Source of the DNA: a virus | Lineage: Duplodnaviria > Heunggongvirae > Uroviricota > Caudoviricetes | IMG/VR virus record: IMGVR_UViG_2619619129_000006 | Length of the DNA stretch: 9,491 nucleotides | Reading direction: 5' to 3' (one strand) | Shown here: one piece after another, positions 1-1,070 of the stretch | How positions within the stretch are numbered: the stretch's first letter is position 1 | How the letters are laid out: the number at the start of each line of letters is the position of its first letter | The notes under the pieces: model-generated | What the model saw: the letters and a program-made list of their open reading frames with translations, nothing else | What the model was told of the DNA's origin: nothing | Databases searched by the model: none | Program-made: the position numbers and the translations under genes

Positions 1-667
1 AGCCGGCATCGGCTGAGACAAATTGCTCCTCTCCATGCAGCAGATTACCCAGCTGATTGAGGTCATGCTCGTTGGCCGCGGTGGTGACTAGGCTGTGGGT
101 CAGGCCACTCTTGGCATCGACACCAATGTGGGCCTTCATGCCAAAGTGCCACTGATTGCCTTTCTTGGTCTGATGCATCTCCGGATCGCGTTGCTGCTCT
201 TTGTTCTTGGTCGAGCTGGGTGCCTCAATGATGGTGGCATCGACCAAGGTGCCTTGAGTCATCATGACGCCTGCTTCGGCCAGCCAGCGACTGATGGTCT
301 TGAACAATTGGCGGGCCAGTTGATGCTGCTCCAGCAGGTGGCGGAAATTCATGATGGTGGTGCGGTCCGGCAAGGCGCTATCCAGGGATAACCGGGCAAA
401 CAGACGCATGGAGGCGATTTCGTACAGAGCATCTTCCATCGCGCCATCGCTCAGGTTGTACCAATGCTGCATGCAGTGAATGCGTAGCATGGTTTCCAGC
501 GGATAAGGTCGCCGGCCATTACCAGCCTTGGGGTAAAACGGCTCGATGACTTCCACCATGTTTTGCCATGGCAGAATCTGCTCCATGCGGGACAAGAAAA
601 TCTCTTTTCTGGTCTGACGGCGCTTACTGCTGAATTCACTGTCGGCGAAGGTAAGTTGATGACTCAT
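1..667 (-). CDS. insH: IS5 transposase (InsH/Ins5A), N-terminal ~222 codons; 3' end outside window
   Basis: ATG at 667-665 on the - strand; hand translation gives [22 protein letters not shown]... and stays open to position 1 (...[19 protein letters not shown]). Absent from the ORF track because it has no stop inside the window. Confidence 0.9.
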
Positions 668-735
668 GATGAACCCTGTTCCATGGCTCCAGATGACAAA
701 CATGATCTCATATCAGGGACTTGTTCGCACCTTCC
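1..735 (-). mobile_element. IS5, partial (right-hand ~735 bp; the rest lies beyond the window start)
   Basis: Positions 720-735 are the reverse complement of GGAAGGTGCGAACAAG, which I recall as the IS5 terminal inverted repeat; the - strand upstream of it encodes the IS5 transposase N-terminus. Only one end is in the window, so target-site duplication cannot be checked. Confidence 0.9.
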
Positions 736-737
736 CT

Positions 738-1070
738 ATGTCTGTCACAATTCAGGGAAATACCTCAACCGTTATTTCAAACAACTCCGCCCCGGAAGGA
801 ACATCAGAAATAGCCAAAATCACAAGACAAATTCAGGTGCTGACTGAAAAGCTTGGGAAAATCTCATCGGAAGAGGGGATGACGACACAGCAGAAAAAAG
901 AAATGGCTGCATTGGTACAGAAGCAAATTGAAAGCCTCAGGGCTCAACTGGAGCAGTTGTTAAGGCAGCAGGCAGAGAAAAAGAATAAAGACGCGACAGT
1001 TCAGCCTGATAAAAAAGAAGAGAAAAAAGACGATACAAATACCGCTGGCACCATTGATATTTACGTCTAA
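738..1070 (+). CDS. flxA: FlxA (Qin-prophage protein, FliA-regulated in K-12; function unknown), 110 aa
   Basis: ATG 738 to TAA 1068-1070; translation MSVTIQGNTSTVISNNSAPEGTSEIAKITRQIQVLTEK...TAGTIDIYV, 110 aa, matching my memory of FlxA sequence and length. The track ORF 666-1070 is the same frame read through from inside IS5. Confidence 0.85.
   Translation: MSVTIQGNTSTVISNNSAPEGTSEIAKITRQIQVLTEKLGKISSEEGMTTQQKKEMAALVQKQIESLRAQLEQLLRQQAEKKNKDATVQPDKKEEKKDDTNTAGTIDIYV

Follow-up and report, generated by a model that had tools for sequence, protein, structure and literature searches.

Insertion sequence IS5 separates flxA from its Shine-Dalgarno sequence in a Qin-type cryptic prophage and probably abolishes FlxA synthesis

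The flxA gene of a Qin-type cryptic prophage was found to be separated from its Shine-Dalgarno (SD) sequence (AAGGAG) by the insertion sequence IS5, which parts the SD from the ATG inside the short leader (roughly 20 nt) of the gene. The prophage is contained in a viral record (IMGVR_UViG_2619619129_000006), of which a stretch of 9,491 nucleotides, referred to here as the window, was analyzed. A recent transposition of IS5 into the flxA leader, private to the source of this DNA and leading to the loss of FlxA synthesis, is the likely explanation. In such an event, IS5 would have transposed into the leader at a near-cognate target, CTAT, leaving the coding sequence intact but preceded by the C-rich left end of IS5, which would provide neither a ribosome-binding site nor an outward promoter, while the FliA (sigma-28) promoter would be no closer than 1.2 kb, beyond IS5, and may even have been deleted. 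The expected outcome would be that no FlxA is made, that is, a simple knock-out of a gene without a known motility role.

IS5 terminates at position 735 of the window and the flxA ATG occupies positions 738-740, the sequence reading ...catatcagggacttgttcgcaccttcc/ctATGtctgtc (a slash marks the break here and below). Position 735 is the canonical terminal base of IS5 (…GTTCGCACCTTCC), and in an alignment of the window with E. coli K-12 MG1655 and N96 the break falls precisely between 735 and 736. The sequence around it is ...GGAGAAAT/CTATG in the intact allele and ...CACCTTCC/CTATG in the window, or, in a longer view, …GATTAAAGATTTTTTTGTGCATGCCGATAGTGCTTTTTTAAAAGGAGAAAT/CTATGTCTGTC… and …TCAGGGACTTGTTCGCACCTTCC/CTATGTCTGTC…, respectively. 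Homology to the intact Qin-prophage flxA locus of K-12 and N96 begins at 736, 2 bp before the ATG, and no sequence shared between IS5 and the flxA leader was detected in the alignment. An earlier note on this DNA had described an IS5 end at 735, followed by CT and then by the flxA ATG at 738, which is right to the base; the range that it assigned to the feature, 667-740, covers the untranslated left end of IS5 plus the ATG, but the IS5 fragment itself spans positions 1-735 and runs past the window edge. In the intact Qin locus, the 200-bp spacer between ydfV and flxA (b1566 in K-12) holds the sigma-28 promoter and the SD, whereas here IS5 takes its place up to 2 bp from the ATG; the coding region is the same as that of the window from 736 on, and the protein is the common allele.

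The flxA coding sequence (738-1070, plus strand) codes for 110 aa and is intact, now without its sigma-28 promoter and SD. Its product matches the Pfam family FlxA (PF14282) over residues 7-101 of 110 with 54.1 bits (cut-off 26.3), 18,994 blocks of a public collection list the identical protein, and ten distinct genomic contexts of it all show the ordinary relB-ydfV-flxA arrangement. In the intact allele the ATG is preceded by TAAAGATTTTTTTGTGCATGCCGATAGT, then AAGGAG (7 nt upstream of the ATG) and then AAATCT, and an in-frame TAA is present four codons upstream (F*KEKS-M) with no start codon in between, indicating that the annotated start of flxA is the real one. A genuine start codon elsewhere was considered, since it would have displaced the start at 738 proposed in the earlier note, and is excluded by this upstream TAA; the spacing of AAGGAG, the RefSeq annotation of the same 110-aa ORF and the Pfam match agree with the start at 738.

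In its intact form in Qin, flxA is a non-flagellar gene of class 3 type that depends on FliA. The 28-mer TAAAGATTTTTTTGTGCATGCCGATAGT has been listed as its FliA motif from ChIP-seq (Fitzgerald et al. 2014, PMC4183435, Table 2), and flxA expression was reported as 280 in the wild type versus 2 in a fliA mutant; according to the same study, FlxA is not known to contribute to flagellar synthesis or to motility (PMC4183435). Both the dependence of flxA on FliA (sigma28) and the displacement of its native promoter and ribosome-binding site, which had been proposed beforehand, are borne out by these data, and the displaced elements can be named as the FliA site, identical to the published motif, and the SD AAGGAG. 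The FliA-type promoter, TAAA-N15-GCCGATAA, is present upstream of flxA in the intact allele and missing from the window, where no exact GCCGATA occurs anywhere and the single one-mismatch site upstream of the gene on the plus strand (499-505) has no TAAA box. The predicted duplex energy between the 20 nt before the ATG and the anti-SD (the 3' end of 16S rRNA) changes from -8.7 kcal/mol in the intact allele to +0.7 kcal/mol in the window, in agreement with the previous remark that no SD match precedes this ATG.

The IS5 part of the window (1-735, minus strand) comprises the left 735 bp of the 1195-bp element and is identical at 735/735 positions to annotated IS5 copies, such as that of E. coli UMNK88, in which a full 1195-bp copy of the identical variant was located (L183 241-1435); the element continues past the left edge, with IRR outside the window. 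The ins5A (insH) transposase gene, which is transcribed away from flxA, is represented by its first 222 codons (2-667, minus strand; start codon at 665-667), which are free of stops, with the C-terminal third of the protein outside the window; its translation matches the Pfam families DUF772 (76 bits) and DDE_Tnp_1 (60 bits). The inverted repeats of IS5 are 16 bp long (PMC11677980), and the 16-bp terminal repeat of the IS5 group, with GGAAGGTGCGAA(C/T)AAG at the element end, is present at 720-735 on the minus strand as the left terminal inverted repeat IRL, GGAAGGTGCGAACAAG, whose last base, 735, abuts flxA DNA and next to which the DDE transposase Ins5A/InsH is encoded, as is characteristic of the IS5 family. 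The core of the Pins5A promoter, whose elements were defined by 5' RACE (PMC11894529) and mapped here onto the window sequence, occupies positions 702-730 of the minus strand (-35 gtgcga, 725-730; -10 gatcat, 702-707) and also points away from flxA. Pins5A and Pins5CB are both reported to be nearly inactive, with IS5 transposase expression relying on outside promoters (PMC11677980). The UMNK88 copy is flanked by CTGA on the side of its right end and by CTAA on the side of its left end, without a direct repeat, and a second transposase fragment is found directly beyond its right end, suggesting a nested or rearranged IS cluster.

Neither the IS5 sequence of the window nor the full IS5 copy yielded a sigma-70-like promoter facing flxA. 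Two reading frames lead from IS5 into the gene. One of them is in frame with flxA (666-1070, plus strand), with ATGs at 666, 669, 693 and 702 that would add up to 24 residues to FlxA, and from ATG 666 it is open for 134 codons; these extended proteins are hypothetical, their ATGs have poor SD sequences (anti-SD energies of -1.5 to -3.9 kcal/mol), and an exact-sequence look-up found none of the four IS5-FlxA fusion proteins on record. The other is an outward-reading ORF in a different frame (659-847, plus strand), whose ATG at 659 has the best SD of the region (GAAGG, 6 nt upstream; -4.7 kcal/mol) and which crosses the flxA start and extends 36 codons into the gene. In the frame of ATG 659, the last two bases of IS5 together with a YTAR target read CCY-TAR, so that a canonical insertion always gives a stop at the junction, as in the UMNK88 copy (L183 1359-1439), in which the outward ORF is closed by the TAR of its canonical target; here the ORF stays open past the junction because the flank is the atypical CTAT. 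As a minor point, in the predicted fold of the new leader UUCCCU of the IS5 terminus pairs with AGGGAA, located in codons 6-8 of flxA, so that the AUG is enclosed.

The 4 bp that flank the IS5 end, CTAT (736-739, plus strand), presumably represent a copy of the target site and are near-cognate to YTAR, which they match at 3/4 positions. YTAR is a strong motif in 220 reconstructed IS5 duplications (PMC5009759), and the earlier note had considered CTAT untypical of it. This view agrees with a survey of IS5 left-end flanks in viral (IMG/VR) and metagenome contigs (loci L002-L172, 143 distinct flanks), in which YTAR was present in 127/143 (89%) and CTAT in 2/143. Central TA with one outer mismatch is kept in 7 of the 16 non-YTAR flanks, namely ATAG (three), ATAA (two) and CTAT (two). 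ATAG is the reverse complement of CTAT, this target class accounting for 5/143, and together with ATAA the RTAR/YTAY class reaches 7/143 distinct IRL flanks. ATAA was found on both sides of the copy at L137, a verified direct duplication at an outer-mismatch target, and the only other CTAT-flanked full copy that could be checked, L087, has CAAG as the opposite flank.

Identical 4-bp flanks on both sides were found in only 22/59 distinct full-length IS5 copies from IMG/VR and metagenome contigs, and left and right flanks were unmatched in 31/52 of the full copies with a YTAR right flank. Most of the remaining full copies pair two differing YTAR flanks (for example, TTAG…CTAA). These unmatched flanks resemble YTAR flanks paired at random and look like repeat-driven assembly chimeras, the likeliest cause, or products of IS5-IS5 recombination and, since they affect over half of the full IS5 copies, the survey gives no clean rate of true non-YTAR duplications; they also counsel caution in reading target duplications off metagenome or viral contigs. 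A Y-T-A match is expected by chance in random flanking DNA at a frequency of about 1/32, and the coincidence of the exact IS5 terminal base with a near-cognate CTA therefore points to a joint made by the transposase rather than to an illegitimate join or a misassembly. CTAT thus appears, from the flanks surveyed, as an atypical yet recurrent near-cognate target of IS5, and the junction fits rare near-cognate transposition.

The IS5-flxA junction was present in 0/5,426 complete E. coli genomes when searched with a 201-bp query, every match stopping at the junction on one side or the other, whereas the intact promoter-flxA junction was found in 1,189/5,426 of them at an identity of at least 99%. 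It was not found in GTDB species representatives, metagenome contigs or IMG/VR either, and the papers found on IS5 together with flxA concern hipA-flxA deletions and flhD::IS5 rather than this junction. An ancestral arrangement, which the earlier note had named as the alternative to a strain-specific one, is excluded, as K-12 MG1655 is uninterrupted and the locus is intact in 1,189 genomes and joined to IS5 in none of the 5,426. Across these collections the junction is private to the source of the window. Neither side of it shows decay, the IS5 part being 100% identical to other copies and FlxA being its common intact allele, which suggests that the event is probably recent.

The rest of the window (736-9491) is a Qin-type cryptic prophage segment reaching from flxA to dicB and ydfD, which is 99.9% identical to that of N96 and of about 260 further complete E. 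coli genomes. In addition to flxA (738-1070), it contains a split ISEsa1-like transposase, several pseudogenes, dicC, a dicA-like gene, ydfA, ydfB, ydfC, DicF, dicB and ydfD. At 8246/8247 it shows a deletion of 160 bp (compare L001 13512-13671), a segment that is present in N96 and in all best-matching genomes; the deletion falls in the interval from ydfC to DicF, some 130 bp upstream of where the DicF RNA is matched by Rfam (8378-8429), and a 3-bp CGG microhomology is common to its two ends. The 8246/8247 junction, searched with a 44-bp query, was found in none of the 5,426 complete E. coli genomes, which makes it a second private structural change in this prophage; lying in the precursor transcript of the dicB operon, the deletion might affect DicF processing. 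Elsewhere in the segment, a strong Rfam match to the sok antitoxin RNA (RF01794) covers the full model length at 2922-3093 on the minus strand, with 99.8 bits (gathering threshold 59), in an interval that is unannotated in N96; a 60-aa ORF on the opposite strand (3026-3208) gave no Pfam match, and this region is a probable unannotated hok/sok-type type I toxin-antitoxin locus. The ISEsa1-like (IS1202/ISNCY) transposase (1507-2848, minus strand) is split into two ORFs, one of 310 aa (1507-2439, minus strand) with a weak rve_3 match and one of 123 aa (2477-2848, minus strand) with HTH domains. Some other genomes carry a single gene for a 446-aa transposase at the same place (L173 3770-5110), and the copy in the window is probably inactivated.

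The flxA allele is most likely a new case of the well-known insertional inactivation by IS5, at a site found in none of the collections searched. It shares with the known cases in E. coli (DDE transposase, YTAR target, 4-bp duplication) the same element, 100% identical over 735 bp and with the canonical terminus, and its position, in non-coding DNA at the start of a gene, belongs to a class that is reported to be favoured (PMC5009759). It differs from them in its flank, CTAT instead of the typical YTAR, and in that the coding sequence is untouched and only cut off from its SD and promoter. IS5 is also known to activate genes (flhDC, glpFK, fucAO and bgl) from an upstream position, which is also its position here, and flxA is part of the flagellar regulon, with flhDC, the master operon of that regulon, being a classic target of IS5 activation. 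In the cases whose orientation is reported, fucAO and flhDC, the end of IS5 that carries the ins5A promoter is distal to the target promoter, and glpFK activation requires that the 177-bp bent 3' end of IS5 is proximal to the promoter (PMC2753651, PMC11894529); in fucAO, transcription from a fusion promoter follows the ins5A direction through IS5 and enters the operon (PMC11894529). All these cases retain a resident promoter or leader (PMC2753651, PMC11894529), whereas in the window it is the ins5A end that adjoins flxA, with ins5A transcribed away from the gene and the native leader reduced to 2 bp. Activation of the glpFK, flhDC or fucAO type was therefore rejected, the orientation being opposite and no resident promoter being retained. 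Another IS-linked break affects the same promoter/leader region of the same prophage in E. coli CUPF09, but there the element is IS1 and flxA is deleted, whereas in the window the element is IS5 and flxA is kept. In CUPF09 (L184 3080-3800), the homology upstream of flxA ends inside the sigma-28 -10 element and is followed by IS1A and a truncated integrase; flxA has been deleted from this complete genome together with the remainder of the prophage arm, an independent IS-linked break.

As its SD and its promoter are gone, we infer that flxA is almost certainly silenced. The earlier note had left two outcomes for the gene, silenced or rewired to signals derived from IS5, of which the former is the better reading and the latter has no support, because no promoter-like site faces flxA, the orientation is opposite to that of the activation cases and the promoters of IS5 itself are reported as nearly silent. 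In a rewired gene, transcripts starting in IS5 or crossing it on the ins5CB strand, which runs in the direction of flxA, would be translated from ATG 666, 669, 693 or 702 or, in the absence of an SD, from the native ATG, so that FlxA itself or an extended form of it would come under new control. This outcome is quite improbable, although the 134-codon frame from ATG 666 into flxA is open, the flxA-direction strand of the full IS5 copy carries one weak terminator-like site alone (L183 273-285) and transcription can cross the whole of IS5 at fucAO, though in the other direction (PMC11894529). IS5 in plasmid reporters had at most a very weak downstream effect, unlike IS2 and IS3, but a chromosomal IS5 located upstream did raise downstream expression in the same study, which counts against silencing and in favour of rewiring (PMC5526668). 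However, the ins5CB and ins5A promoters were reported to be negligible (PMC11677980), the upstream ATGs pair weakly with the anti-SD (-1.5 to -3.9 versus -8.7 kcal/mol for the native start), and the better placed ATG 659 (-4.7 kcal/mol) is out of frame and would send ribosomes across the flxA start. The predicted pairing of UUCCCU with AGGGAA around the AUG also argues against rewiring, as does the fact that, compared with the known activation cases of reported orientation, the opposite end of IS5 abuts flxA with no resident promoter between the element and the gene. If the sigma-28 promoter persists beyond IS5, read-through together with the ATGs at 666-702 could give a little N-terminally extended FlxA, in competition with translation of the out-of-frame ORF from ATG 659.

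Because the right end of IS5 falls outside the window, a simple insertion, an IS5-mediated deletion or inversion, and IS5-IS5 recombination would look alike in this DNA. We infer a simple insertion, in which case the other IS5 end would read …AAAAGGAGAAATCTAT/GGAAGGTGCGAATAAG…, with a direct repeat of CTAT and with ydfV about 200 bp beyond. A junction created by a rearrangement, either an adjacent deletion or inversion by intramolecular transposition or a recombination of two IS5 copies, is unlikely; the promoter, ydfV or more would then have been lost or moved, and flxA would still be silenced. A rearrangement would be in line with the flank not being canonical YTAR, with the CAAG found opposite CTAT in L087, with the 160-bp deletion as a second private change in the window and with the IS-associated deletion at this spot in CUPF09, where IS1 and the deletion start inside the flxA sigma-28 promoter. 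On the other hand, 758/857 IS events in mutation-accumulation lines were plain insertions (PMC5009759), and intramolecular transposition also picks a YTAR-like site, so that CTAT does not favour it; moreover, L137 provides a near-cognate target with a verified duplication, and mismatched flanks in metagenome contigs for the most part reflect assembly chimeras (31/52 of the copies with a YTAR right flank being unmatched). These chimeras would themselves fit an artefact of assembly or sequence construction, in which the IS5 repeat was misjoined to flxA, as would the fact that neither this junction nor the private one at 8246/8247 was found in any of the public collections searched. Such an artefact is nevertheless highly improbable, since a misjoin needs sequence common to IS5 and the flxA leader, of which there is none, and would have had to fall on the exact terminal base of IS5 beside a near-cognate CTA (a chance of about 1/32).

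A recent IS5 transposition into the flxA leader with loss of FlxA synthesis thus remains the preferred reading, and its consequences for the cell would be limited. A polar effect is not expected, given that the genes following flxA are encoded on the opposite strand, and FlxA has no known flagellar or motility role (PMC4183435), so that the phenotypic cost is probably nil. There is a slim chance that a simple insertion, by setting the strong FliA-dependent promoter of flxA, together with its SD and the duplicated CTAT, against the right end of IS5 (…AAGGAGAAATCTAT/GGAAGG…), has coupled this IS5 copy to the flagellar regulon. If so, an SD with an ATG would lead into the ins5CB strand of IS5, which is antisense to the transposase gene, the IS5 copy would be transcribed under the control of the flagellar sigma factor, and an SD-less read-through RNA of flxA would also be sent downstream. 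Driving ins5CB artificially from outside doubled IS5 transposition (PMC11677980), suggesting that IS5 activity could become coupled to the motility regulon, which is itself often switched on by IS5 at flhDC.

The significance of this allele is small, as it is one more private IS5 insertion in a dispensable cryptic-prophage gene to which no function has been assigned and which motility does not require. It provides a clean natural example of an intact coding sequence cut off from its SD by an insertion sequence that ends 2 bp before the ATG, it adds a data point for the rare near-cognate targets of IS5 (YTAY/RTAR), and it can be used as a strain marker. It would be of wider interest solely if the displaced sigma-28 promoter drives the ins5CB strand of this IS5.
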